64,000 nt of DNA, taken from Nitrososphaerota archaeon (GTDB lineage Archaea; Thermoproteota; Nitrososphaeria; Nitrososphaerales; Gagatemarchaeaceae). Shown here piece by piece: positions 20,266 through 37,817 of this stretch (its first letter is position 1; every line of letters starts with the position of its first letter). The stretch is taken from positions 134,723-198,722 of the forward strand of contig JAPCJH010000002.1 in the NCBI GenBank assembly GCA_027887045.1, given 5' to 3'. The translations under genes and the position numbers were made by a program. The notes under the pieces are model-generated. The model saw only the letters and a list, made by a program, of their open reading frames with translations, was not told where the DNA came from and did not search any database.

Positions 20266-22020
20266 GTGGCTGAAAAGGCTAAGAAAAAACGCATTTTAGT
20301 ATTGTGCGCGCTCCCTTACACGAACGCGATTCCCCACGTAGGGAACATGGCGGGTTCCCACCTCCCCGCGGATATCTTTGCCAGATATTGTAGGCTAAGA
20401 GGATACGAGACGCTGTTCGTCGGCGGGACCGACGAAAACGGGACCCCCACGGAGGTGGCGGCGCTCGAGCTTAAAGCGACTCCGCGGGAACTCACAGACG
20501 CGCTATACGCCGTCCAAAAGCGAATCTACGATTGGTTTGAGATTTCGTACGACAACTTTTCTCGCACCTCTAGGCCCATTCACCACAGGACCACCCAAGA
20601 ATTCTTTCTGAGGATCTACGGGAAAGGGTTCGTCTCTAAAGGCGTATTGAGGATGCCCTACTGCGAAAAGGATAGACTCTTCCTTCCGGACAGGTACGTC
20701 GAGGGGACCTGCCCCGTGTGTGGTTACGAACACGCGCGGGGAGACCAGTGCGAACACTGCTCTAGCCTCCTAGATTCCGACCAATTGATCAACCCGCGCT
20801 GCAAGATAGACGGGAGCGTCCCCGTGTTCAGGGACACCAAGCATCTCTTCCTCGAACTCGGGAAGCTCCAGAGCAAACTCGAAAAGTGGATCAAGAGCGA
20901 GAAGAGGTGGAGGCGTCAGGTCTCATCGCTGGCTCTTGGGTGGATCAAAGAAGGCCTGAAGAAGAGGAGCATCACCCGTGACCTGAAATGGGGAGTCCCG
21001 GTTCCCTTGGACGGGTATCGAGACAAGGTCTTCTATGTGTGGTTCGATGCGCCTATCGGATACATTTCTTCGACCAGAGAGTGGGCCGCAAAAAAGGGAA
21101 GGCCGCAGGCCTGGAAGAGGTTTTGGCTCGATGACAAGGCCAAGATTTACAATTTTCTGGGGAAGGACAACATCCCGTTCCACACGATTTTCTGGCCGGG
21201 AATGCTGATAGCCCACGGAGATTACAACCTACCGTACGACGTCGTGGGATATCAGTTTGTGAACTATGAAGGGGACAAGTTCTCAAAGAGCAGGAATTGG
21301 GGGATCTTCTGTGAACGCGTCGTAGAATCCGAACTCAGACCCGACGTCTGGAGGTACTACCTGACCTACCTGATCCCCGAGACGAAGGATAGCGAGTTCA
21401 AGTGGGAGGACTTCGAGAGCAGGGTGAACAACGAGCTGGTCGCTAACCTTGGGAACTTCGTCCACAGGACTCTGACCTTCGCGTGGAATAATTTCGGGGG
21501 GGTTGTCAGGACCCCTAAGTACGGGGAGCGCGAAAAGAACCTGGAAGGAAGGGTCGATGAGCAACTAAATCGGGTGGAGAGATGTCTCGACGAAGTAAAA
21601 CTTCGCGACGCTTTGACCGGAGTGCTGGCAATCGCAGGTCTGGGAAACGAGTATTTCCAGAGTAGCGAGCCGTGGGTACTCATCAAGAAGGACAGGGAAA
21701 GCTGCGAGAAGGTCATTTCCTTCTGCCTTCACCTCTGCAGGAAGCTTTCTGTGGTCCTTGCACCCTACACTCCGGAAGCAGCCGGTAGGATTGCATCGAT
21801 GCTAGGTCTGAGGGAAATACCCAGCTGGGACGAGATTTCGACCCGGAAAGACGAATTTCACGTTTTGAAGCCGGAGATACTGTTCAAAAAACTGGACGAG
21901 ACAGAGCTGGAGAGGGTGAGGTCGGTCGTGACGAAGAGCTACGACCTGAAAGAAATCTTCGCCGGTAGGAGGACTCAGTCGCACGGGACGAGCATTTCGA
22001 GCCCCCCCGGAAGCGAGTAG
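20266..22020 (+). CDS. metG: Methionyl-tRNA synthetase
   Basis: HIGH-region PYTNAIPHVGNMAGS. Zinc knuckle CPVCGYEH...CEHC. KMSKS variant KFSKSRNWGI. An anticodon-binding region follows. The 3' end overlaps the ftsZ-like gene by about 45 nt. Confidence 0.9.
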   Translation: MAEKAKKKRILVLCALPYTNAIPHVGNMAGSHLPADIFARYCRLRGYETLFVGGTDENGTPTEVAALELKATPRELTDALYAVQKRIYDWFEISYDNFSRTSRPIHHRTTQEFFLRIYGKGFVSKGVLRMPYCEKDRLFLPDRYVEGTCPVCGYEHARGDQCEHCSSLLDSDQLINPRCKIDGSVPVFRDTKHLFLELGKLQSKLEKWIKSEKRWRRQVSSLALGWIKEGLKKRSITRDLKWGVPVPLDGYRDKVFYVWFDAPIGYISSTREWAAKKGRPQAWKRFWLDDKAKIYNFLGKDNIPFHTIFWPGMLIAHGDYNLPYDVVGYQFVNYEGDKFSKSRNWGIFCERVVESELRPDVWRYYLTYLIPETKDSEFKWEDFESRVNNELVANLGNFVHRTLTFAWNNFGGVVRTPKYGEREKNLEGRVDEQLNRVERCLDEVKLRDALTGVLAIAGLGNEYFQSSEPWVLIKKDRESCEKVISFCLHLCRKLSVVLAPYTPEAAGRIASMLGLREIPSWDEISTRKDEFHVLKPEILFKKLDETELERVRSVVTKSYDLKEIFAGRRTQSHGTSISSPPGSE

Positions 22021-23051
22021 TCCATCTCGTCGTCGATTACGTTCTTTCCGAACACCTTTGCGAGAGGGTCATAATCGTCGTACTTCGTAGTCTTGAAGCC
22101 AGATGCGAGCAGACTGACCTGCAGCTGAGAGGTTCCGGCATAATTGACCCCATACTCCACGTCCACAGCCTGGTTGTTCATCATGGGGCCGAGGCGTCTT
22201 ACAGCGAGACCGACTTCGGTTCCTGATAGCGAGGCGTCGCCCGTCAGCAGCACGACGGCATGATTCGCTTCTCTCGCCTCGGCGATCTTGCTTATCGAAA
22301 TTACCGCGCCCGCTAGCGCCTCTTCGGTCTTGTCTGTGGAGCTAGAACGTGCCAACCCCAGAAGGGTGTACCCGTCCTGGAGGACCGATCCCAGCACCTT
22401 GTTCAGGGCTACCGGGACGTCGGATTCGGCTGGTTTCGCGAAGATCGACGTGAGGGCCCTTACGGCCTCGCCGTTCGCCATCTTGTAGATGTCCGTGAGC
22501 GAGTCTTCCGGGGAAGACTTCAGGAGGATATCGTTATCGATCACTATCACGCCCTCCGCTGCTGCCCTGAACCGTTTCAGGGAGACTCCAGCATAGAACT
22601 TCAGCTTCTTCTCGAATTCGAAGGGCATAACGGCGACCCCGATCGTCGTGGCGCCCTCGTCCTGGGCGAGTTTTGCGACAACCGGGGCTAGACCCGTCCC
22701 CGTCGCGCCGCCGAGACCAGCGATAACAAAAACGACGCGGGAACCCCGAAGAATCTTTCTAATTCGTCCCTGGGCCGCGATCGAGAGGCCTCTCACCATA
22801 GAGGGGGTAAGCTTCTGGTCGACGGGAGACTCGAGGAGGATTTTCTCACCCTCTCCTACGAATTCGAAGTCGTTCTCGTCGCAGGACAGATAGGCGTACC
22901 TGGAAACCGGCAGGGATTCTCTACTCAAGAGCGAGACGATTCTGCTCCCGGCGCTTCCGATTCCTACCGCGACGGAGTCGCGTGTTGAAGATTTTTGAGT
23001 CAAACTTTGGGTCGGTGCCCTTATGGTGTCGTGGATATACAAGGCCATCAA
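21975..23051 (-). CDS. FtsZ/tubulin-family GTPase (FtsZ-like)
   Basis: GIGSAGSRIV (G-box). FVIAGLGGATGTGLAPVVAKLA (tubulin signature GGGTGTG). IGVAVMPFEFEKKLK (T5/T6 region). VIVIDNDILL (T7 NDxLL). Confidence 0.75.
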   Translation of the reverse strand: MMALYIHDTIRAPTQSLTQKSSTRDSVAVGIGSAGSRIVSLLSRESLPVSRYAYLSCDENDFEFVGEGEKILLESPVDQKLTPSMVRGLSIAAQGRIRKILRGSRVVFVIAGLGGATGTGLAPVVAKLAQDEGATTIGVAVMPFEFEKKLKFYAGVSLKRFRAAAEGVIVIDNDILLKSSPEDSLTDIYKMANGEAVRALTSIFAKPAESDVPVALNKVLGSVLQDGYTLLGLARSSSTDKTEEALAGAVISISKIAEAREANHAVVLLTGDASLSGTEVGLAVRRLGPMMNNQAVDVEYGVNYAGTSQLQVSLLASGFKTTKYDDYDPLAKVFGKNVIDDEMDYSLPGGLEMLVPCD

Positions 23052-26331: not shown

Positions 26332-26369
26332 TTGTGCTCACCGACCAACAAGAAACGGTTAAAATAAGT

Positions 26370-28064
26370 ATGGATTCTGGTTCGCCTCGTAAAGACTTGA
26401 AGAAGTCGTTAATCTTAGCCGTAGCTCTTTTGCTCTTCCTCTTCTCAACCACAGGGGGGACGTCAGCTCAGACTCCGGGTGCACCTACGATAAACGTGTC
26501 GAGCCAGTTTTTCGTGTCGAGCTACGGTTTCGCCGTGATGAACGAGACGGTTACTTTCAACAATACTGGAACCACCGCGGTGCAGATCCCGTCGTTACAG
26601 TTGGGCTTCCCGGCTTCGGTCGCTTCCAGGCTCGTGGGTAACTACACCCTGACCGGGACAGGATACACCGTGTCCGCCTCCACTTCTAACGGCTCGATCA
26701 GCTACGCGGTCTCTAGTTCGCTCGGCCAGCTTCAGGCCGGGGCTTCGAGTGCCTTCTCCCTGAAGGCGGTAATGCAGAACCTCGTCAGTTTGGTGAACGG
26801 CAGCACTGTTGGCGTCCTCCTTGTCGGATATCCTTCCGTGAACGTGAAGGTAGACTCCCTGAAATCCACCATTCAGATGCCTTCTTTGGCCTCGTTGGCT
26901 ACCCCGCCCGCGGGTTATACCCCGGTCAGCGGCTCGGGGGTACCCGTCTACAGGATCTCCTTGACGGAATTCGGTCCGGGGCCAGCCCTCGTGACGACGG
27001 CGGCCCTGCAGGCGAGCGGCGCTTCGGCACTGACGCCCGTGCACGTCTTCGTCGCTTCGAGGACGATAACAGCGACAGGGAACGGGAAACCGCAAATTCA
27101 GGATTACGTCAATTTGAAGAATACGGGGACATCCGCCATAAGCAGCCTCAAGCTGGCGCTACTACTGGGCAACACGGGACAGGTCACAGTCGTATCCAAT
27201 GGATACCCCCCTCTTTTGAACCCGAAGATAGTCGGCCTGTCGAACGGCGCGATAGATCTGACCGCGGCCCCCTTCAGTTCGAGCCTGAAGGCGGGCTCGA
27301 ACCTCACTGTGACCATGGTGTACGACCTCCCGTCCACGTACTTCTCGGTCTCGGGCGGACAGATATCCGTGAACATACCCACTAAGCCGCCGATAGCCGC
27401 GCCCGTGGACACCTACACCATTTCCATGTCCCTCCCCACCGGTATCCGCTCGGGCCAAGGACAGCCCCAAGTCTTCCAGCCCGCGTTACCCCTTGCTCAG
27501 GGAACGGCGAGCCTCTCCTACAGCATTACCCTCGGGTTTGCGGCCGATAGGGCGATACCTGCGGCGTCGGTCGTCTTCCTCATTGTGCTGATCGGGCTGT
27601 ACGTGAGCAGGGCCAAGACCGGGGGGGCCGAAGAAGAGGGGACTATCTCCGAGCAGGCTGCGGACATGATCAAGGCGTTCGAGGAGAAGACCGACCTGGT
27701 CAACTCCATGTTCGACCAGATACGGGCGGAGGAAGCGAGCAACCTCAACAAGGCGTACTTCGACGAGATTCGACAGAGGATAGGCACTTTCAGGGGCAGG
27801 GCCCTGCAGCGCCTGAATGAGGCGAAACAGAAGTCCTCGAGCAAACCCTTCCTGGACCTCCTCGTCCATATCAACGAGGTCGAGAAGGAGGTCGACAGGG
27901 CGACGAAGGATCTGCTGAACCTCTACGAGCAGTATTACACGAAGCGGATGAGGCAGGAGACGTTCGAGAACCTTCTGCCGAACTACAGGAAGAGGTATGA
28001 CGCCTCACTGAATCACCTCTCCGATCAGTTGAACCTCGCGCAGAAAGAAGCGAAGCTCCAGTAA
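26370..28064 (+). CDS. Surface-anchored secreted protein (signal peptide, Thr/Ser/Val-rich ectodomain, C-terminal TM + charged coiled-coil tail)
   Basis: MDSGSPRKDLKKSLILAVALLLFLFSTTGGTSAQ signal peptide. Long beta-rich T/S/V region. ...AASVVFLIVLIGLYVSRAK TM helix, then a K/E/R-rich tail. No enzymatic motif. Confidence 0.45.
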   Translation: MDSGSPRKDLKKSLILAVALLLFLFSTTGGTSAQTPGAPTINVSSQFFVSSYGFAVMNETVTFNNTGTTAVQIPSLQLGFPASVASRLVGNYTLTGTGYTVSASTSNGSISYAVSSSLGQLQAGASSAFSLKAVMQNLVSLVNGSTVGVLLVGYPSVNVKVDSLKSTIQMPSLASLATPPAGYTPVSGSGVPVYRISLTEFGPGPALVTTAALQASGASALTPVHVFVASRTITATGNGKPQIQDYVNLKNTGTSAISSLKLALLLGNTGQVTVVSNGYPPLLNPKIVGLSNGAIDLTAAPFSSSLKAGSNLTVTMVYDLPSTYFSVSGGQISVNIPTKPPIAAPVDTYTISMSLPTGIRSGQGQPQVFQPALPLAQGTASLSYSITLGFAADRAIPAASVVFLIVLIGLYVSRAKTGGAEEEGTISEQAADMIKAFEEKTDLVNSMFDQIRAEEASNLNKAYFDEIRQRIGTFRGRALQRLNEAKQKSSSKPFLDLLVHINEVEKEVDRATKDLLNLYEQYYTKRMRQETFENLLPNYRKRYDASLNHLSDQLNLAQKEAKLQ

Positions 28065-28070
28065 GCACGC

Positions 28071-30386
28071 CTAGTTGATCACGGAGACGAACCGGTCGTC
28101 CTTCGAGGCCTTGCTCAGCGGGCCGATTATCGGCGTTTTCTGCCCGCAGACCTTGCAGCGGTTGTGTTTGTCCAAGTTGTAGGCAGTAATGTCGTAGCCG
28201 TTCCTCCCGATTAAGACCCTGCCGCATCCTGGGCAATAAGTACTTTCCAACGGGTGCCCAGGGACGTTACCGATGTAGACGTAGTTCAGCCCCGCCTTCT
28301 TGGCGATCTCGTAGTGTTTCTCGAGCGTTTCAACAGGCGTCCACGGCAAATCCATCATCTTGTAGTCGGGATGGAACCTCAGAAAATGGATCGGGGTGTC
28401 GGGGCCCATGTTGTCGTAGACCCAACGGGAGAGCTTCCCCGCGGTCTCGATGTTGTCTCCCACCTGAGGGACGATTAGGTCTGTTATCTCCACATGGACA
28501 TTCGTCTTGGATTTCGTTTCGAGGAGCGTCTGGTATATCGGGTCAGCGCTGGGAATCCCGATGTACCTCCTGACGAACCCGGTCTCTCCGCTCCCCTTGA
28601 AGTCCACGGTGATGCAATCCAAGAAGCTCTTCATCATGTCCACTGTCTCGGGGGTGTCGAAGCCGTTTGAGACGAATATGTTAAAGATCCCGTTCTCCCT
28701 TGCGATGTTCCCGATGTCCCTCGCGTACTCCATGAAGATTGTCGGTTGGTTGTACGTGTAAGCCAGTCCTTCGCAGCCGTAGGATTTTGCTAGTGCCACC
28801 ACCGCGGGGGGGTCCATGTCGACTCCTTCGACTTTCCTCCGCTGACTGATGTCACTGTTTTGGCAGTTACTCACGGCGAGGAAACTTGCCGTGTAGGAAT
28901 GGTCTCCTTCGACCTCCAAGTTGTAAACATAACCTGAGTAATCCTCGGAATCGATCACCCGAATCGGGACGAGCGTGAAGTCTTCCTCGACGACAAATTT
29001 TGTGGCCGCGACCGTGGAGCTTACATCTTCGGAAACAAGCATTACCCTGGTCATATAGTCGTAGTTCCTTCCTACAATTCTCCCCTCTATCTCGTATTGC
29101 GGCGCATTCTTCGATACATAGAATCTGGGGAGGAGACCAAGACGCGACATTATGTACCATACTCCTAGAGTCAGTTCCTTCGATACCGAAGTCGTTCCAA
29201 ACCATCTCTGGCCCTTTGAGCCGGTGAAGAACCCATCTCCTCGGATGCATGCTCGAAGGAAACTTTCGAGCAAGCTTTTGTCCTGCGCATGAAGGATAGT
29301 CAACGGGACTTTCTTAACATATTTGTTCTCGCCTGCTAGGTTCCTGAGGAACAGCGCAAGCGGTCCGTTCGTAAGCTCCAATCTGATGACGGAACCTTGC
29401 TGGACGCGTCTAGGTGTGAGTCCGAAAATCTTGTTGAGGAGCTTTTCAGTTCTTGCGATGAAATCAGAATCGTGATTGCCAAACGAAAATGCGACGGTCC
29501 AGCTGTTCGGTCGATTCGGTGCCCTTGTCAGGCTCCCCTCCGCACAATAAGTACCTAGGAGCTCGGCAAATTCCTCGTTCAAGTCCAAACTCGCCGGAAT
29601 CCCTTCGCTCCGGGACATACCGAACCTGACCCTACCATCTACGACGGAAACTTTCCAGACTGACTTGCGCTTCGATGGGCGAGCCACCCTCTTGACTTCT
29701 TCCTCGATTATCTGACTTGCAAAAATGTTCGTCGAGACAATCGCATCCTTTGCCCTTGGAATTGCGAGCAGATCGTTTTGCTTCAGTTCGTCCGCCCTTT
29801 TCTTTTTGAGGGTTTTGGTTTGTCCATCGAAAACAAATAATCCGTGATTCGGCGTGCATCTTACCTCCGGAAGATAGTACGGACGGATTCTCAAGAGCTT
29901 ACCAGAATATTCGTGTCTGAACACTTTCAGAACTTTGCCAAAGGCCCCATCCTTACTGAGGACGCGCAAATCGTTCGTTGGGAAGGCGACCTCGTTCGAT
30001 TGTCCTGTTTCTTCGTAGATCTGAGACATCGTTTTGATGCCCTGATCGGTGATTACGGCTGATTCTGGAGCTATACAATAAGAACATAGCCAATTGCAAC
30101 CATTTGTGGCAATTGAGAAGATTTTTGAACCGGGTTTGTAATGCACGACCGGCTTCTTCTCGATCGGGTCGATGTGCCCCGCGATTATCTTCCCGTACAC
30201 GAGTAGGTACAATTTCCCACCAACGACGCCTCTGACCCCGCAGAGCCCCACCTGCCCCTCCCCTATCTGGCACAACCTCGCGCACGCCGTGCACTGGACC
30301 TTCCCGCTCGGCAGGTTCCTGAAGAGCTCCGCCTCCTTCCCGCTCGGCTCGGTGAGACGCGTCGGAACGGAGGACATAGTTGTCAA
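28071..30386 (-). CDS. amrS: AmmeMemoRadiSam-system radical SAM enzyme (AmrS, COG1180-like) interrupted by an in-frame intein
   Basis: N-extein VQCTACARLCQIGEGQVGLCGVR...LVYGKIIAGHIDPIEKKPVVHYKPGSKIFSIATNGCNWLCSY. C-extein CQNSDISQRRK...YVYIGNVPGHPLESTYCPGCGRVLIGRNGYD...CKVCGQKTPIIG. Splicing restores CNWLCSYCQN, the radical-SAM CxxxCxxC motif. Confidence 0.8.
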   Translation of the reverse strand: MTTMSSVPTRLTEPSGKEAELFRNLPSGKVQCTACARLCQIGEGQVGLCGVRGVVGGKLYLLVYGKIIAGHIDPIEKKPVVHYKPGSKIFSIATNGCNWLCSYCIAPESAVITDQGIKTMSQIYEETGQSNEVAFPTNDLRVLSKDGAFGKVLKVFRHEYSGKLLRIRPYYLPEVRCTPNHGLFVFDGQTKTLKKKRADELKQNDLLAIPRAKDAIVSTNIFASQIIEEEVKRVARPSKRKSVWKVSVVDGRVRFGMSRSEGIPASLDLNEEFAELLGTYCAEGSLTRAPNRPNSWTVAFSFGNHDSDFIARTEKLLNKIFGLTPRRVQQGSVIRLELTNGPLALFLRNLAGENKYVKKVPLTILHAQDKSLLESFLRACIRGDGFFTGSKGQRWFGTTSVSKELTLGVWYIMSRLGLLPRFYVSKNAPQYEIEGRIVGRNYDYMTRVMLVSEDVSSTVAATKFVVEEDFTLVPIRVIDSEDYSGYVYNLEVEGDHSYTASFLAVSNCQNSDISQRRKVEGVDMDPPAVVALAKSYGCEGLAYTYNQPTIFMEYARDIGNIARENGIFNIFVSNGFDTPETVDMMKSFLDCITVDFKGSGETGFVRRYIGIPSADPIYQTLLETKSKTNVHVEITDLIVPQVGDNIETAGKLSRWVYDNMGPDTPIHFLRFHPDYKMMDLPWTPVETLEKHYEIAKKAGLNYVYIGNVPGHPLESTYCPGCGRVLIGRNGYDITAYNLDKHNRCKVCGQKTPIIGPLSKASKDDRFVSVIN
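28866..30077 (-). other. Intein (404 aa) with LAGLIDADG homing-endonuclease domain, inserted at the third Cys of the CxxxCxxC motif
   Basis: Block A CIAPESAVITDQG. Block B TPNHGLFVF (TxxH). LAGLIDADG-like ELLGTYCAEGS and FLRACIRGDGFF. Blocks F/G YVYNLEVEGDHSYTASFLAVSN followed by the +1 Cys. Boundaries were computed codon by codon. Confidence 0.75.
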
Positions 30387-30441: not shown

Positions 30442-31443
30442 CTATAGTCCCACGCTGTTCACGGGTCTGCCGGAGTTGCCGTCCAGAACCAGAACGATCT
30501 TCTTCCCCTTGTGGTCGAACCTGGCGAACCAAATCGGGGCGTGCAGCAGCTCGGCATCCCCCACGTCCACCTCCGTGCTTATCTGTTGGATCATATGATA
30601 TTGCTGATGGGCCCTTTGCGTCTGTAACTGGTCGACGAAAGTCTTGGTCTGGTACTTCGCGACCTCCTCGCTGACGTCACCGTTAAGGACCTTTACCCCC
30701 TTCGGAACCTTCGACACGTCGAAGAGGACCCTCTCGTCGAGCGTGAATTCGTATTCGTGAGGCTGGTAAAGGGTGAGCGCCTTCAGGGCGACGACGGGAT
30801 AGTTGTAGTTGTTGTCGAGAGTTGCGGCCTTGTTGTAGCCGCCTCTGCCCATCCCCCCGCCCCACATTGTCCCGAGCACCATACCGCCGAGTGCTCCCCC
30901 TCCGAACCCGCCACCCATTCGACCCCCGCCCATGCTCGCGCCGAGGACGCCTGCGAGGACTGCCGTGGTTGCGAGCGTGCCCGCGGTCGCGGCCGTATCC
31001 GAGGCGACGATATTTGTCCTGGCCGAAGCGGGGACGACCCAGTACGGGGTCAAGGCCAGGGTGAGCTCTTCCTGGGTCGAGTCTTCGTGGAGGTGTCTGT
31101 GCAGGAGACCCTTGTCCATCAGGCTCGTGATATTTTGGGCAATCTGGTCCGGAGTCTGAAAGCGTAGAGGAAGCATCGTGTGCCTCTGGATGTTCTTCCA
31201 GCCGTCGGTCGCAAGTGATACGCCGTTGCCGCAATATTCGCATGTGATTATCATTTCACCGAATTTCGGAGCGAGGGGCGCTCCACAACTCGGGCACTTT
31301 AGCGAAGTCACTCCGGAAGGGGCCAGGATGGGTTCTCTCGACACCGGCGCTGCTGCGGGTGCCCCGGCTCCCTGCTTCGTCCCGCACTTGAAGCAGTACT
31401 GTGCCTCGTCCGGTAATTGGGCGCCGCACTTGACGCAGAACAT
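30442..31443 (-). CDS. Zinc-ribbon / Gly-rich protein (YdjG-like?), third gene of SPFH operon
   Basis: Real start MFCVKCGAQLPDEAQYCFKCG, plus CPSCGAP and CEYCGN ribbons. GGGRMGGGFGGGALGG Gly-rich segment. An unassigned C-terminal domain follows. The 566-aa track ORF is an Arg-rich artefactual extension. Confidence 0.45.
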   Translation of the reverse strand: MFCVKCGAQLPDEAQYCFKCGTKQGAGAPAAAPVSREPILAPSGVTSLKCPSCGAPLAPKFGEMIITCEYCGNGVSLATDGWKNIQRHTMLPLRFQTPDQIAQNITSLMDKGLLHRHLHEDSTQEELTLALTPYWVVPASARTNIVASDTAATAGTLATTAVLAGVLGASMGGGRMGGGFGGGALGGMVLGTMWGGGMGRGGYNKAATLDNNYNYPVVALKALTLYQPHEYEFTLDERVLFDVSKVPKGVKVLNGDVSEEVAKYQTKTFVDQLQTQRAHQQYHMIQQISTEVDVGDAELLHAPIWFARFDHKGKKIVLVLDGNSGRPVNSVGL

Positions 31444-31454
31444 GATCCAAGCCC

Positions 31455-32555
31455 CTAAAACTTGTTGCCGCAGTTGGCGCAGAACTTCGCCCCGGCAGCG
31501 ACGGGCGAGCCACAGTTCGAACAGAACGCCTGCTTCCCCTGAGCACTCTGCCCCCCCGCCGCGGGTTGCGCTTGGTTTTGTTTCGCCCCACAGCTCGGGC
31601 AGAACGTGCTGCTCACGGGGATCAGGGTTGCACAGCTCGGGCAGCTCTTCATCTGTCCCGTGCCCATACCTTGGGCCATCTGCCCTCCTAAGACCGAGCC
31701 AACGCCTATCCCGGCCCCCAGACCAACCCCGAGCCCTGCTCCGGCGCCGGCGGTCCCGCTTGGGTTGTTCGCGGCGCCTTCGATCGCCTTCCCCGTCTGG
31801 TACTGCATGTAGTTCACCCCTAGGACGGACATTTCCGATCTGGTGTCGACCGCCTTCTGCACTTCGTCTGGCAGGCTGATGTTCAGCCCGGAGAGTTTGT
31901 TGATCTCGACGCCGTACTGACCGAAGTGATCGGCGGTGGTCGCCAGGACGGCCTGTTCGATGTTCGTTAGGCTCGCGGCAAGGTCGGTGACCTTCATGCC
32001 CTGTTGCTTCATCTTCCCGAGCGCGTTGTAGACCAAGATGATGATCTGTTCCTTCAGCCTCGAATCTACATCGTCGGAAGTCTCTGCCCCGAAAGTCCCC
32101 ACGAACTGGTTGATGAAGTTCTCCGGAGATGAAACCTTCCACCTGTATTCTCCGAACACTCGGAGATTGACGATCCCGAAGGTCGGGTCAGTGAACGCGT
32201 ACGGCGAACTACTCCCGTATTTCCCGTCCATGTAGCGAGTCTGTAGGTAGTAGACCTCCGCCATCTGCTGGACTCCCGTGAAGAACTTGAGGAGGTTCCG
32301 TACGATGGGGGCGTTGATGTCGGTGAGGGCGTATCTGTTGGGCTGGTCGAAGTAGGTCAGGACCTTTCCGTCCCTGAAGAAGACGGCGGTCTCGTCTTCT
32401 CGGACGACTATGTTGTCGTTGAGCCTAATGTTCCGGGGTACTTTCCACATGACGTTGTCCTGCTTGTTCTCGGGCTCCCAGATGATCGTCGCAGACCCGC
32501 CCAATCCGCCGGTGTTGACGCTCTTCTCGTCCTTTTTCCCGAACAAGCTGATCAC
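31455..32555 (-). CDS. SPFH (band-7)-like protein with C-terminal zinc ribbons (COG4260 / B. subtilis YdjI-like)
   Basis: GTG start overlaps the upstream stop (GTGA). VISLFGKKDEKSVNTGGLGGSATIIWEPENKQDNVMWKVPRNIRLNDNIVVREDETAVFFRDGK resembles the YdjI N-terminus. C-terminus has CPSCA...CPSCGAK, CSNCGSP and CANCGNKF ribbons. Confidence 0.55.
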   Translation of the reverse strand: MISLFGKKDEKSVNTGGLGGSATIIWEPENKQDNVMWKVPRNIRLNDNIVVREDETAVFFRDGKVLTYFDQPNRYALTDINAPIVRNLLKFFTGVQQMAEVYYLQTRYMDGKYGSSSPYAFTDPTFGIVNLRVFGEYRWKVSSPENFINQFVGTFGAETSDDVDSRLKEQIIILVYNALGKMKQQGMKVTDLAASLTNIEQAVLATTADHFGQYGVEINKLSGLNISLPDEVQKAVDTRSEMSVLGVNYMQYQTGKAIEGAANNPSGTAGAGAGLGVGLGAGIGVGSVLGGQMAQGMGTGQMKSCPSCATLIPVSSTFCPSCGAKQNQAQPAAGGQSAQGKQAFCSNCGSPVAAGAKFCANCGNKF

Positions 32556-33106
32556 TTTACTCCGATGTCCTCGACGACCTGCATTCGCGCCCCCCACTTT
32601 TGCTTGAAGTCGGATAAGAGACCCGTGACGTTTGAGATGGCGGCCTGCAGATTTCCCGGCGACGTGGGATCGTAGACCAAGTTGCCGGGCGCTGTCGCGT
32701 CGGCGAGCTGGAATGCTGCGCTTACAAATGCATAGTCGTAGTCGTAGAGCTTGTTCAGTTTGTCATCATCGATCTTGATGGGAGGCGCGAAGCCGGCGTA
32801 TCCCTGCTGAGCGTGTCTCACGGTCCCGCTCACCTGCTGAACCTGGGAGATCAGGGACCCGACGCTCGCTAGATTCGTGTAGTCACTCGCCGCCGCCAGC
32901 GCCTTTCTCAGCTGTTCAAGATTGACCTTGGCTCCGTCGAGTTTGTCTGAAACCTGGTTGCGAAGCAATTCGTCGGCCACCCTCAGGTCTTCTCTTTCCC
33001 TGTACCCGCGGAGCCCCGGGATCAGTAGCTCGAGCTTCTTCTGGCTGTCCTGATTCGCCTCGACCTGTTTTCTGATGTCTGGACTATCTGAGATTCTCTC
33101 AATCAC
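32552..33106 (-). CDS. Hypothetical coiled-coil protein, first gene of SPFH operon
   Basis: 184 aa, helical (EANQDSQKKLELLIPGLRGYREREDLRVADELLRNQVSDKLDGAKVNLEQLRKALAAA). Translationally coupled to the SPFH gene. Confidence 0.45.
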   Translation of the reverse strand: MIERISDSPDIRKQVEANQDSQKKLELLIPGLRGYREREDLRVADELLRNQVSDKLDGAKVNLEQLRKALAAASDYTNLASVGSLISQVQQVSGTVRHAQQGYAGFAPPIKIDDDKLNKLYDYDYAFVSAAFQLADATAPGNLVYDPTSPGNLQAAISNVTGLLSDFKQKWGARMQVVEDIGVK

Positions 33107-33220
33107 TCCGTGAGTGCTTCTTTTTTTCGCTGCGTCCCCGTTCTATTTACGTGTTCGGGCGAGGTAATCGTCCCGCGGATCGGTCGCTCCTGTTCCCGCT
33201 AAGATCGTCGACGCACGATC

Positions 33221-33751
33221 TTGATTCGAGCTCTCGGGGAAGACGTCCTCCAAAGAGTTTCTGGAAATCCCGTTTCACGGTGCATACTTTATGCGCCCCC
33301 GAAGCCAGCCTTGGTCTGGGTGTTCAATCACTCGGTCTGGGTGTTCAATCACTCGTCGAATGTCGGACCCAGCCCTTCTAAGCGCGGCTATCTCTATGCC
33401 TTGGGTGCTGCAATTTTCGGGGGGACAATCCCGGCGCTTAGCAAGCTTCTTGTGGCCACCACAGGGCCGCTAGTGATCTCTTCGCTCGTTTTCCTGATAG
33501 GTGGGCTCGTTTTGCTACCGTACAAACCCAGGAAACTCCCCACGGGCAGGGGGATCCTTCTGATTCCTGCGATAGGGATAATGGGTGCGCTGGCAGCGCC
33601 GGTTCTGTACCTCTATGGAATACAGCACAGCACTGCGGTGAACGCCTCCCTCCTTACGAACAGTGAGGTTTTCTTCACAGCCCTTATCGCGTTTGTTGTC
33701 TTTCACGAGAAACTCAAGCGGAAACAAATCGTTTCATCGCAGGGTTCGTAG
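33221..33751 (+). CDS. EamA/DMT-family transporter, single-domain (probably truncated) with internal 21-bp tandem duplication
   Basis: ...RGYLYALGAAIFGGTIPALSKLL...LVFLIGGLVLLPY...GIMGALAAPVLYLYGIQHSTAVNASLL...ALIAFVVFHEKL is one EamA domain (about 4 TM) of the usual two. The N-terminal VWVFNHSVWVFNHS comes from an exact 21-bp duplication. Confidence 0.4.
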   Translation: MIRALGEDVLQRVSGNPVSRCILYAPPKPALVWVFNHSVWVFNHSSNVGPSPSKRGYLYALGAAIFGGTIPALSKLLVATTGPLVISSLVFLIGGLVLLPYKPRKLPTGRGILLIPAIGIMGALAAPVLYLYGIQHSTAVNASLLTNSEVFFTALIAFVVFHEKLKRKQIVSSQGS

Positions 33752-35310: not shown

Positions 35311-35404
35311 GGTAGCCCGGCCTGGAATCGAACCAGGGTCACCGGCTCCAAAGGCCAGTATGCTTGGCCGCTACAATCGGCAGAGTGATCTTCCACCGGG
35401 CTGC
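35311..35404 (-). tRNA. tRNA-Gln(UUG)-like gene with about 18 extra nt in the 5' half (possible non-canonical intron) or tRNA-derived att remnant
   Basis: Minus strand reads AGCCCGG-TG-[GAAGATCACTCTGCCGATTGTAGCGGCCAAGCATA]-CTGGC-CTTTGGA-GCCGG-TGAC-CCTGG-TTCGATT-CCAGG-CCGGGCT-A-CCA. The acceptor is perfect 7 bp. The anticodon arm has U33, UUG and R37. The T-arm and encoded CCA are canonical. The D-region is 18 nt too long to fold canonically. Confidence 0.4.
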
Positions 35405-35507: not shown

Positions 35508-36572
35508 TTAGGTGTGTCCATGCTCAGTGTTCAGAAATCTTGCGATAATTTCAATTGGGTCCTCCATTGAAGTAAGGACCCTCGAAGCCCTTCGCGCGAA
35601 CACTTTGCCAACTCCCGGCTTCAAGAAAGATCTCGCGAGTTTGGCCATGGCATTTTCTGTTCGTGCCTTTTTCAGAAGACCAACCGAGATCAGGTATTTT
35701 TCGGTGTACAGGTTTCCTTGAAATGCGGAGATTGTCGGGACGCCCATGAGCGCCGCTTCAGCGGTCATCGTTCCGCCGAGTCCAATGAAGACGCTTGCAC
35801 GCCCCAGTAATGATGTGCCATCGACAGCCTCCTCCGGGACTTCGAACGAGGCGCCGAACATATCTTTGACGTGTTGGAGCTGGTCGTCATATCTGCATAG
35901 CGCGATGCGCTTTGAATCGGGGAAATCCTTTGCAATCCTTCGAAGAATGCTGTCGACCCATCCCAGATCTTTCCCCTTCATATATGGCGCATAACTTTCC
36001 TCAAGTCTGACGATAATCGTCTTTTCCCGAGAAGACGGTTGCGACGACATCTTGATTCTCTTCAGCCATGCCGCGGGGTCGAGCGCACGGTAACGCGTGA
36101 TCTGTTTCCTTTTGATTGCGAAAGGAGCCCACGCGCGGTGGGGAATGACCCACGGTGTAAAGAGATGACGAGTCAGTGGGAGGGAGAGCTTCCCGGCGAT
36201 CGCAGAGTGGGGCGAATCATTCACTGCGTAGTGTGGGACGGACAACCCGAATGAAATCCTGGCGCAGTCTGCGGAAGCGACCGAGACAGAAAAATCCGGA
36301 GCGAATTCCTCGATGATAGGCAGAAGTTGGCGCTCGCGTTCGATACTGGCCGCCAGCTGATCCTTGGGATCCTTCCCACCTCTCTCCCCGACGTAGGTCA
36401 GATCGACTCCATGCATCTTCGAGAGTTGCTCGACTTCGCGATATCGCCTAGAAGTCGCGAGAATCTCAAAGCCTCCGGCACGCAGGGTCTCGATGAGAGG
36501 GCGGAAGAAGAGGACTTGTTTTGGCGTCAGTATTTCGATCCACCCTCTATGCGAAGACACGACTGGATTCAC
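35508..36572 (-). CDS. DUF354-family protein (GT-B-fold, glycosyltransferase/epimerase-like)
   Basis: N-terminus WIEILTPKQVLFFRPLIETLRAGGFEILATSR matches the DUF354 consensus (KIWIDI.n.pHV.FFKPII.EL.krGHEV.IT.R). 354 aa. Confidence 0.65.
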   Translation of the reverse strand: MNPVVSSHRGWIEILTPKQVLFFRPLIETLRAGGFEILATSRRYREVEQLSKMHGVDLTYVGERGGKDPKDQLAASIERERQLLPIIEEFAPDFSVSVASADCARISFGLSVPHYAVNDSPHSAIAGKLSLPLTRHLFTPWVIPHRAWAPFAIKRKQITRYRALDPAAWLKRIKMSSQPSSREKTIIVRLEESYAPYMKGKDLGWVDSILRRIAKDFPDSKRIALCRYDDQLQHVKDMFGASFEVPEEAVDGTSLLGRASVFIGLGGTMTAEAALMGVPTISAFQGNLYTEKYLISVGLLKKARTENAMAKLARSFLKPGVGKVFARRASRVLTSMEDPIEIIARFLNTEHGHT

Positions 36573-36615
36573 GGTTTGTGGGCTGGGGCGTCGACGTTTC
36601 GGACTTTATTTAACC

Positions 36616-36625
36616 AATTTTGTCG
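36616..36625 (+). promoter_or_regulatory. TATA-box-like element upstream of 36672 GTG start
   Basis: ggactTTATTTAAcc lies about 50 nt upstream of the proposed start of the dehydrogenase-like gene, in the 100-nt divergent intergenic region. Confidence 0.3.
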
Positions 36626-36671
36626 CCGAGATAATCAAAGTATAATTAGACTTCAAAGAAACGGACGCTCA

Positions 36672-37817
36672 GTGCCCAAGAACTCTGCGAGACCCAAGGT
36701 CGCCATGTACGGTTTGACGACCGAAGGCTACGCGCTGGCCGCGAAATTCGTCGAGAGGGCGGACGTAACGGTCGTTGATGAGACGCTTCAAATGGCCCTT
36801 GAGCTCAATTCTGCGTTTCTAAAGAAGAACCAGAATCTGGAGGAACTCATGGGGAGCGAACCGCTGATGAGTTTCAAACCCATCGAGCAGGTCCTCAGCG
36901 ATTCACAGATCATCTTCTTCACGCCGAAGCTCCGGAGACCTTCTGATGAATCTCTCATCGAAGCGAGCTCTAAACTCCGGGACCTCTCCAAGTACATTGT
37001 GAAGGGGTCAGTCTTGGTGAACACGCTGCCGACGGGTCCCGGTGGGAACGCTGAGAACATCATGGTCATCGAGAAACAGACCGGGCTCGGGATCGGGGAT
37101 ACGCTCGCGTATGCCTATGTCCCCCTGCGGGCAGGGAGCACAGACGCCCAGACGGTCGCTTACGCGGGAGCCGGCGAAGAGAACCCCCTTGAGATTCTGG
37201 GTTTCAAGCCCAACGCCCAAAACATCTTCGCAGCAGAGCTCGCCTACGCGTCGTCCGTGCTGATTCAGGCCGTGGGGATGGCGACGGAAGTGGAGTTGAT
37301 GAAGAGGGCACGGGAAGCGAGAGTCAAGTTCTTGGGGAGAGGGGAGGCGTTCTATTTCGATGAACTGGCCCAACACGTACACGAGCTGAGGGCGGTGCAA
37401 TCCAGTGAAGAAGCGGGTGAATCAATAACGTACCTCGCAGGTGCGGCACTGAAAAGCGTGGAGAACTATGTAAGATATGTGGTTGACGAAACTCGAGAGA
37501 TGTTGAAGGAGATGGAGCTCAAAGCGAGCAGGACAAAAGTACTGATTCTTTGGACTCTCGATCGATACGAGATGAGGGGAGACAGGCTTCAGCTCGCCGA
37601 AAGCATAAGCACCAGGCTGAAGGATTACGTAACGGACGTCGTCGTTCACAGCGGTGCCAAACTTGCTGGTGGGTCAGACATCTTCGATTCCCAAAAGCAT
37701 AACGTCGCTGTAGTGTGTTCAAAGAGAGACTATGAGGGCGTCAGGGAGGCCCGCAAAGGTCAACGTGGTTTCGAGCTCTCGCTCCTCCAAGCGACGGCGG
37801 ACCTCAGAAGGGAGTAG
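36672..37817 (+). CDS. Nucleotide-sugar dehydrogenase family paralog with degenerate NAD-binding and catalytic motifs (probable pseudoenzyme)
   Basis: KVAMYGLTTEGYALAAKF stands where the Rossmann IAVIGLGYVGLPLA belongs; GxGxxG is lost. The catalytic PEF region reads AYVPLRAGS. The C-terminal UDPG_MGDP_dh_C-like KVLILWTLDRYEMRGDRLQLAESISTRLKDYVTDVVVHSGAKLAG is retained. The first 115 codons of the track ORF overlap DUF354 and are rejected. Confidence 0.45.
   Translation: MPKNSARPKVAMYGLTTEGYALAAKFVERADVTVVDETLQMALELNSAFLKKNQNLEELMGSEPLMSFKPIEQVLSDSQIIFFTPKLRRPSDESLIEASSKLRDLSKYIVKGSVLVNTLPTGPGGNAENIMVIEKQTGLGIGDTLAYAYVPLRAGSTDAQTVAYAGAGEENPLEILGFKPNAQNIFAAELAYASSVLIQAVGMATEVELMKRAREARVKFLGRGEAFYFDELAQHVHELRAVQSSEEAGESITYLAGAALKSVENYVRYVVDETREMLKEMELKASRTKVLILWTLDRYEMRGDRLQLAESISTRLKDYVTDVVVHSGAKLAGGSDIFDSQKHNVAVVCSKRDYEGVREARKGQRGFELSLLQATADLRRE

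Follow-up and report, generated by a model that had tools for sequence, protein, structure and literature searches.

SPFH proteins are universal membrane scaffolds whose roles are largely set by their partners. Which partners accompany the SPFH protein encoded by a non-ammonia-oxidising-type Nitrososphaerota (Thaumarchaeota) MAG, and what might they do together? In the 64-kb stretch of this genome that we analysed (hereafter the window), three closely coupled minus-strand genes, g1, g2 and g3, together span positions 30442-33106 (Table 1), exactly where an earlier note on this DNA had placed three ORFs. That note compared them with the B. subtilis pspA-ydjGHI operon and suggested a module for membrane stress or defence. 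We favour, with a probability of about 0.6, the reading that these genes specify a YdjG/YdjI-type (SamG/SamI-type) SPFH scaffold complex beneath the membrane, with g1 as a dedicated SPFH partner, a function deduced from homology and genomic context.

Homologues of each gene number in the hundreds to thousands in related archaea, at 55-77% identity, and the g1-g2-g3 order is kept in related genomes, indicating genuine genes as opposed to chance ORFs. g1 begins with GTG, its sole in-frame start, and agrees exactly with the protein model at NCBI; GGAG can be read directly 5' of this start, and a candidate archaeal TATA box lies 43 nt upstream of it. The GTG of g2, at position 32555 within ...AAGTGATC..., forms with the TGA stop of g1 the GTGA overlap that had been described before, while the spacer separating g2 from g3, previously given as 12 nt, counts 11 nt (TAG-GGGCTTGGATC-ATG). 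No Rfam families were found within the operon. Its flanks are of a housekeeping nature (glycine cleavage, radical SAM, EamA, oxidoreductases), and the radical-SAM/intein gene that follows g3 after 55 nt was rejected as an operon member because all other genomes have different genes 3' of the module.

Table 1. Coordinates of the three genes and their features, numbered along the window.
Feature	Position	Strand	Description
TAAATA	33144..33149	-	candidate archaeal TATA box, read from the sequence
g1	32552..33106	-	184 aa, soluble, all-helical; distant LIMLP_15305-like superfamily member
g2	31455..32555	-	366 aa, YdjI/SamI-type SPFH protein by homology; GTG start overlapping the g1 stop
g2 SPFH (Band_7_1) domain	31827..32435	-	residues 41-243, PF13421
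g2 Gly/Ala-rich linker	31656..31772	-	residues ~262-300, weakly hydrophobic (AGAGAGLGVGLGAGIGVGSVLGG...)
g2 C-terminal zinc ribbons	31461..31649	-	two, CxxC...CxxC; Pfam Zn_ribbon_3, Zn_Ribbon_1, DZR
g3	30442..31443	-	333 aa, YdjG/SamG-type protein by sequence; ATG start
g3 N-terminal zinc ribbons	31225..31443	-	two; Pfam Zn_Ribbon_1, DZR
g3 Gly-rich segment	30829..30996	-	residues ~150-205, weakly hydrophobic; putative membrane-anchoring hairpin

The central protein had been described as SPFH- and YdjI-like with CxxC ribbons, and all of these elements were detected. g2 matched the Pfam Band_7_1 model over profile positions 9-210 of 211 with 127 bits (cutoff 24; E 1.1e-36), and its ribbons are formed by Cys 305/308/319/322 and 345/348/359/362. 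The BLASTP alignment with B. subtilis YdjI was full-length (E 2e-12, 20% identity) and collinear through the ribbon. In position, the g2 linker, with 15 Gly and 6 Ala in 39 residues and a maximum KD19 hydropathy of 1.57, matches a Met/Gly/Asn-rich low-complexity stretch of YdjI in the alignment. Hydropathy analysis revealed no N-terminal hydrophobic segment in g2, and a PDB sequence search with this protein returned nothing. By homology, g2 is a soluble YdjI/SamI-type Band_7_1 SPFH protein.

The third gene had been taken for another zinc-ribbon protein, with tandem ribbons followed by a Gly-rich linker. The two N-terminal ribbons are present (Cys 3/6/17/20 and 50/53/68/71), but the Gly-rich part does not follow them directly; a segment of ~75 residues with alpha/beta character lies between. 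The architecture of g3 is that of YdjG, in which two N-terminal ribbons precede PepSY/NTF2-like (YpeB-like) domains. Judged from its sequence, g3 is homologous to YdjG, and the parallel with Bacillus is thereby closer than the earlier note had it. The Gly-rich segment contains 21 Gly in 61 residues (maximum KD19 1.49), comprises two short hydrophobic stretches with a conserved R/RR between them, and is kept across 46 homologues; the AF2 model of g3 is of low confidence, with a pLDDT of 54.6 overall and below 40 in this segment. In YdjG this segment corresponds to a Gly-rich TM at the C-terminus (PMC11237479). Since the hydrophobic segments of both g3 and g2 are weak (KD19 1.5-1.6), membrane anchoring by g3 is regarded as putative.

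The comparison with B. subtilis proved apt when made against the B. subtilis locus itself (L084), from which the PspA, YdjH and YdjI sequences were taken, with YdjG confirmed by exact look-up. In Bacillus, YdjG/H anchor soluble YdjI, and with YdjI also PspA, at the membrane (PMC8581546; bioRxiv 10.64898/2026.02.06.704340), and YdjH/TPM has been reported as the direct anchor of YdjI/PspA. The envelope-stress system PspA-YdjGHI (renamed PspA-SamGHI) resembles the archaeal operon in 3 respects. YdjI and g2 are both soluble Band_7_1 proteins with a low-complexity linker and C-terminal ribbons, of which g2 has two and YdjI one; YdjG and g3 share two N-terminal ribbons, a YpeB/PepSY-like domain and a hydrophobic Gly-rich element, which is C-terminal in YdjG but lies mid-protein in g3, where it is a putative anchor; and a helical protein heads a single operon in both. 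In contrast, the leading proteins, PspA and g1, belong to unrelated families, the gene orders differ (pspA-ydjG-ydjH-ydjI versus g1-SPFH-YdjG-like), the host here is an archaeon whose proteins share ~20% identity with their B. subtilis counterparts, and the archaeal operon contains neither PspA nor the TPM-domain protein YdjH. The absence of PspA, which the earlier note had remarked on, extends to the whole window: no PspA_IM30 Pfam match was found in the operon, and tblastn with three PspA queries returned nothing at E <0.1 in the 64 kb. Similarly, there was no TPM_phosphatase match in g1-g3 and no tblastn match to YdjH in the window. By analogy with Bacillus, g3 would hold g2 oligomers at the membrane on its cytoplasmic side, and the assembly may survey or stabilise stressed membrane.

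The leading gene does encode 184 aa, as had been stated, but an extended coiled coil was not recovered; the predicted fold of g1 is instead a compact five-helix bundle (pLDDT 81, pTM 0.77). Two motifs are conserved, PG-x-x-GY-x3-E-x2-R-x2-D-x2-LR at residues 30-49 and H-x2-QGY-x-G ... L-x3-Y-x2-D at residues 98-124, and the N-terminal PGxxGY...R..D..LR segment combines high conservation with low model confidence. g1 matched no Pfam family. Against NCBIfam NF047596 (LIMLP_15305) it scored 39.3 bits (E 5.9e-10), and, like g1 itself, all 75 sampled representatives of the g1 family matched almost the whole of this model (36-172 of 175), the best of them with E 3.7e-20. As these scores fall far under the equivalog cutoff of 210 bits, g1 is a distant relative of LIMLP_15305 at the superfamily level and not a member. 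LIMLP_15305 is a Leptospira hypothetical protein, and the g1 family is likewise ~175 aa; the sole paper found lists LIMLP_15305 next to a small RNA that responds to peroxide (PMC7567364). Several other identities were rejected, namely PspA (probability <1% by hhalign of g1 profiles against two PspA sequences), YdjH (0.1% in a profile comparison), TelA and the 175-aa neighbour gene in locus L086 (both comparisons negative), as well as PspAA, which is an alpha/beta domain and thus differs in fold class from the all-alpha g1.

Neighbourhood analysis confirmed that the three genes are conserved together. The g1 family comprises 1084 clusters at 50% identity, and g1 is adjacent to the Band_7_1 gene (g2) in all 80 archaeal genome loci (Nitrososphaerota/Thermoplasmata). 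g3 was found in about 54 of the 76 informative archaeal loci, directly downstream in 50 and displaced or partial in 5, and was absent in 21. With g3 missing from roughly one in four of these loci, the g1-g2 dyad works either in its absence or with a partner encoded elsewhere. The pattern extends to bacteria. Chloroflexota loci were retrieved with a clade-level alignment of the g1 family, and a Band_7_1 gene was downstream in 68/68 informative metagenome loci, directly so in 67; at locus L115 it comes after a small inserted gene. Among the remaining sampled representatives an SPFH gene was present in 7 of 8 informative contexts, and a g1 homologue at locus L173 had no SPFH neighbour. Proteins resembling g3 also occur downstream of Band_7_1 in bacteria, as a g3-like zinc-ribbon protein in Paracoccus (hhalign 94.6%) and as a weak match in Vibrio (hhalign 40.7%). 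The g1 family is thus large and uncharacterised, and in archaea as in bacteria its genes are near-obligate neighbours of Band_7_1.

Translational coupling to g2, together with the near-invariant Band_7_1 gene downstream in archaea and bacteria, argues that g1 is a dedicated SPFH partner. It would bind g2, probably via the conserved N-terminal PGxxGY...R..D..LR segment, a contact we infer from gene order only, and would then act as an adaptor, regulator or client that g2 carries to the membrane. SPFH-NfeD pairs (YqiK/YqiJ, FloA/YqeZ, stomatin/NfeD) are conserved two-gene units of bacteria and archaea in which an SPFH gene and a small gene for its dedicated partner are likewise closely coupled. 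They differ from the present pair in that g1 is soluble and all-helical, lies 5' of the SPFH gene and gave no NfeD/OB-fold match in Pfam, and in that g2 belongs to the TM-less Band_7_1 subfamily.

The relation of g1 to PspA is informed by loci elsewhere. Fusions of g1 with DUF4178, of a zinc ribbon with g1 and of the N-terminal part of g1 with Band_7_1 were seen, and loci L169 and L168 have the order [g1-DUF4178]-PspA-[Band_7_1+ZnR]. The earlier note had described g1 as a coiled-coil protein leading an operon without PspA. One alternative holds that, in an archaeon lacking PspA, g1 replaces it as a membrane-binding or remodelling effector that the SPFH protein recruits to damaged membrane. We consider it unlikely, as g1 and PspA occur together in some loci, where no replacement has taken place, and g1 forms a large family of its own adjoining Band_7_1 genes. 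Rather, fusion of the same domain to DUF4178 directly upstream of PspA assigns g1 to the PSP/SPFH membrane-stress network without making it a PspA substitute. Such [g1-DUF4178]-PspA-(Band_7_1) loci follow the logic of the CesT/Tir-PspA and DUF4178-containing PSP operons of Ravi et al. 2024 (PMC11237479), which also feature DUF4178 and a small non-enzymatic partner just upstream of PspA; the archaeal operon differs from those operons in lacking both PspA and DUF4178. Where g1 is fused to DUF4178 just 5' of pspA, the arrangement suggests that g1 could serve as an adaptor to PspA. Tentatively, and at somewhat less than even odds, the g1 family may thus be an undescribed, near-universal dedicated partner of Band_7_1 SPFH proteins in archaea and bacteria, the missing adaptor that links TM-less scaffolds to effectors such as PspA, and itself the output of the system in archaea whose operon lacks PspA.

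The zinc ribbons bear on another alternative, in which the module would serve signalling linked to nucleic acids or transcription, with the ribbons (in relatives also the HTH) binding DNA or RNA and the SPFH protein and g1 sequestering or releasing a regulator according to membrane state. There are four ribbons over g2 and g3, a ribbon is also found at the N-terminus of some g1 homologues, and HTH_17 replaces the ribbons in the Chloroflexota SPFH orthologues of g2. DNA binding by the ribbon of YdjG has been suggested in one paper (PMC9239133), and loss of SamI in Bacillus leads to global transcriptional changes (bioRxiv 10.64898/2026.02.06.704340). However, these Bacillus effects have been attributed to unbalanced SamG/H stress signalling, and the operon contains no DNA-binding domain beyond ribbons of a generic kind, which serve in contacts between proteins as well. 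Moreover, Band_7_1 proteins carry interchangeable modules at the C-terminus (ZnR, HTH_17 or GYF_2), which suggests an adaptor handle and not a fixed DNA-binding role. We therefore judge this alternative improbable as well.

Very improbable is an anti-virus defence system, for instance one acting by abortive infection via membrane disruption: SPFH and zinc-ribbon proteins are present in some candidate defence loci, and a Vibrio plasmid has a TIR-domain gene ~3 kb upstream of its SPFH/g3-like pair, but PADLOC-DB 2.0 gave no match for g1 or g2 and only a spurious ribbon match for g3 (Cas12f, E 0.012), PHROG matches were limited to the ribbons, the flanking genes are housekeeping, no effector domain (nuclease, protease, NADase) was found, and conservation at 55-77% identity over many Nitrososphaerota species looks like vertical inheritance. 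Of the two roles first suggested for the module, membrane stress is thus the one that parallels Bacillus SamGI, while defence finds no counterpart in PADLOC, in the flanks or in the pattern of conservation.

Taken together, these findings favour the sub-membrane SPFH scaffold complex with g1 as its dedicated partner. The result is incremental, extending a known YdjGI/SamGI-type system and not revealing one of a new kind. In the literature searched, experiments on TM-less Band_7_1 proteins are confined to B. subtilis YdjI/SamI, which links PspA to the membrane (PMC8581546). A full-text literature search by family identifiers turned up neither functional work on the g1 family nor a mention of its domain, and the domain is not mentioned in the searched passages of PMC11237479. 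The locus extends the YdjI+YdjG pair to Nitrososphaerota and Thermoplasmata archaea. It also brings to light a large helical family, ~175 aa in size and encoded nearly always just upstream of Band_7_1 genes, which offers a concrete, testable candidate for the regulation of soluble SPFH proteins or for their connection to effectors, and the locus provides a handle on the envelope-stress biology of uncultured soil archaea.

The three consecutive genes of the operon, encoding a predicted helical-bundle protein (g1), an SPFH protein (g2) and a YdjG-type protein (g3), lie in that order on the minus strand of the window between 30442 and 33106. Translational coupling joins g1 and g2, whose TGA stop and GTG start overlap (GTGA); the spacer between the g2 stop and the g3 start measured 11 nt, correcting the 12 nt of the earlier note. 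The window belongs to a Nitrososphaerota/Thaumarchaeota MAG, its g1 and g3 proteins being 100% identical to NCBI proteins encoded on a 580-kb contig. The operon is flanked by housekeeping genes (glycine-cleavage P protein, a radical-SAM gene with an intein, an EamA fragment and oxidoreductases); adjacency of the radical-SAM gene to the module was not conserved in other genomes.

Features of the window and of loci retrieved from genomes and metagenomes (L-numbers)
Feature	Position	Strand	Details
g1	32552-33106	-	184 aa; GTG start, sole in-frame start codon available; GGAG ahead
g2	32555-31455	-	366 aa; GTG start at 32555
g3	31443-30442	-	333 aa; ATG start at 31443
Candidate TAAATA box	43 nt upstream of g1		putative
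Radical-SAM enzyme gene	28071-30386	-	split by intein with LAGLIDADG homing-endonuclease domain; begins 55 nt downstream of g3
Perfect 21-bp x 2 tandem duplication	33313-33355		GGTCTGGGTGTTCAATCACTC
EamA-family ORF	33221-33751	divergent	176 aa; one EamA domain
Marginal partial tRNA match (Rfam)	35321-35377	-	29.2 bits, cutoff 29; model positions 9-63/71
Tubulin/FtsZ-family GTPase domain protein	21975-23051	-	358 aa; Nitrososphaerota genome
Long ORF without Pfam match	26334-28064	+	576 aa
Long ORF without Pfam match	36327-37817	+	496 aa
Band_7_1 genes, Chloroflexota metagenome loci	L158:5559-6680, L092:5549-6595		examples of C-terminal module swap
Band_7_1 gene, Paracoccus	L082:4983-6131		C-terminal GYF_2
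Cluster on Paracoccus ferrooxidans plasmid pFER4	L082:2701-7419	same for all genes	TelA, DUF2927, Band_7_1 SPFH, YdjG-like zinc-ribbon protein
DUF2207 / ~172-175-aa protein	L101:4458-4976, L108:2431-4976, L086:236-2692		examples
g1-family gene without SPFH neighbour	L173:1848-2393		adjoins IS605 OrfB/TnpB-type gene

Elsewhere in the window, the tandem duplication falls in the 5' part of the EamA-family ORF, which may be truncated or disrupted because it is so short and holds a single domain. The partial tRNA match, for which ARAGORN made no call, may be what is left of a tRNA, or may belong to an archaeal tRNA that is split or contains an intron. The product of the 576-aa ORF resembles a secreted, Ser/Thr-rich surface protein whose C-terminus holds a TM segment and a charged helical tail.

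Residues 41-243 of g2 matched Band_7_1 (PF13421; 1.1e-36), the SPFH subfamily lacking a TM segment whose experimentally studied member, in the literature searched, is B. subtilis YdjI (SamI), and a weakly hydrophobic Gly/Ala-rich linker separates this domain from two C-terminal zinc ribbons (Pfam). Using YdjI from the B. subtilis pspA-ydjG-ydjH-ydjI locus (L084; PspA_IM30, Zn_Ribbon_TF, TPM_phosphatase and Band_7_1+Zn_ribbon), the two proteins aligned end to end, terminal ribbon included (E 2e-12, 20% identity). At the sequence level g2 is thus homologous to YdjI, bearing out the earlier description of a YdjI-like SPFH protein with ribbons. Band_7_1 proteins have an exchangeable C-terminal module: archaea and many Chloroflexota have two zinc ribbons there, other Chloroflexota an excisionase-type HTH_17 domain, and Paracoccus GYF_2.

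Pfam matches in g3 were limited to two N-terminal ribbons. A g3 family profile (46 sequences) nevertheless matched B. subtilis YdjG, its sequence verified by exact look-up, at 96.8% probability (E 2e-10) over residues 1-149, spanning both ribbons, a helix and a P-[YF]-W strand, and BLASTP placed a C-terminal motif, P-[IV]-W-x-x-x-[YF]-D...NG-x-[ST]-G, collinearly in both proteins. By profile and motif, g3 is homologous to YdjG. It agrees with the published YdjG description, in which a YpeB-related NTF2-like domain and a TM segment come after two zinc ribbons (PMC11237479), although its conserved Gly-rich hydrophobic element (residues ~150-205; maximum of the hydropathy measure KD19, 1.49) is internal, whereas that of YdjG is C-terminal. 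In Paracoccus, a g3-like protein is encoded downstream of Band_7_1 in the order TelA-DUF2927-SPFH-zinc ribbon protein (hhalign 94.6%); TelA (toxic anion resistance) is another helical stress protein tied to an SPFH/YdjG-like pair. The Vibrio gene downstream of an SPFH gene matched g3 only weakly (40.7%, hhalign).

When genomes were scanned with the g1 profile, 80 archaeal loci were recovered, nearly all from Nitrososphaerota MAGs plus one Thermoplasmata. Every one (80/80) had g2 directly after g1, with a median estimated spacer of ~6 nt; g3 came directly next in 50, was displaced or partial in 5, and was absent from 21 despite enough sequence, 4 loci being truncated. A metagenome scan with a distant g1-family clade gave 80 bacterial loci, with named members from Chloroflexota/Anaerolineae and bacterial EF-P and L9 in the flanks. 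Band_7_1, ending in two ribbons or HTH_17, immediately followed the g1 homologue in 67 of the 68 with >400 nt of downstream sequence; the 68th (L115) carries a small inserted gene between them. YdjG-like queries (tblastn) found nothing convincing in these 80 loci, with no match in 78 and only short zinc-ribbon-level matches in L116 and L155. The dyad also occurred in L085, L086, L171, L174 and L175, and L170 reads [zinc ribbon-g1]-SPFH-g3-like; L173 was the only clear exception among the sampled contexts. Taken together, these findings demonstrate that g1-Band_7_1 linkage is near-obligate across two domains of life. Upstream of the dyad, several Chloroflexota loci encode a membrane protein with DUF2207 together with a protein of ~172-175 aa; the two may be lineage-specific membrane partners replacing the YdjG-like protein. 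In L101 the ~172-175-aa protein matched zinc-ribbon models only, near its C-terminus and below cutoffs.

No Pfam family was found for g1, its sole family match being the Leptospira hypothetical-protein family LIMLP_15305 (NCBIfam NF047596; 39 bits, cutoff 210). LIMLP_15305 was matched by 75/75 sampled family representatives, among which no Pfam family recurred consistently. In a 1.84-billion-protein representative library clustered at 50% identity, the family comprised 1084 clusters at E <= 1e-3 and 518 at E <= 1e-10, nearly all of 165-185 aa. AF2 predicted a compact five-helix bundle (pLDDT 81, pTM 0.77), with the most conserved segment, N-terminal K23-R49 (PGLRGYR-x2-ED-x-R-x2-D-x2-LR), modelled at only 50-60 pLDDT. 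Comparison of the g1 profile with PDB sequences gave nothing significant, and kinship with PspA, TelA or YdjH was rejected on negative profile comparisons.

Domain fusions occur within the g1 family. DUF4178 is attached in some proteins (P0336, P0405), a zinc ribbon stands at the N-terminus of others, and in one the N-terminal part is joined to a partial Band_7_1 domain, a join that might stem from faulty assembly or gene calling. Since the DUF4178 fusions sit directly upstream of PspA_IM30 genes, as in L169 ([g1-DUF4178]-PspA-[Band_7_1+zinc ribbon]), and DUF4178 is an already noted PspA-operon component (PMC11237479), the g1 domain belongs to the PSP/SPFH neighbourhood network. Its co-occurrence with PspA counts against simple replacement, and we consider it unlikely that g1 is itself a PspA-like effector.

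In Bacillus, YdjI is a soluble protein that YdjG/YdjH bring to the membrane and that in turn brings PspA; stress signalling is deregulated without YdjI (PMC8581546; bioRxiv 2026.02.06.704340). By analogy, g3 would tether g2 oligomers beneath the membrane, g1 would bind g2 as a dedicated adaptor, regulator or client, and the complex would act in membrane-stress surveillance. Weak points of this mechanism are that the hydrophobic segments resemble TM segments only marginally, that the operon, unlike pspA-ydjGHI, lacks YdjH/TPM, and that g3 is missing next to the dyad in a quarter of related archaea. Coupling to nucleic acids or transcription through the zinc ribbons or HTH domains seems just as improbable as a PspA-like g1. 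Anti-virus defence is very improbable, given a PADLOC search without matches, the housekeeping context and an operon devoid of effector domains. B. subtilis already provides a module of the YdjI/YdjG type, and the operon is therefore not a new kind of system. New, relative to the literature searched, are an archaeal YdjI/YdjG module without PspA or TPM, the assignment of g3 as homologous to YdjG and, most importantly, the identification of the g1 family as a conserved Band_7_1 partner.
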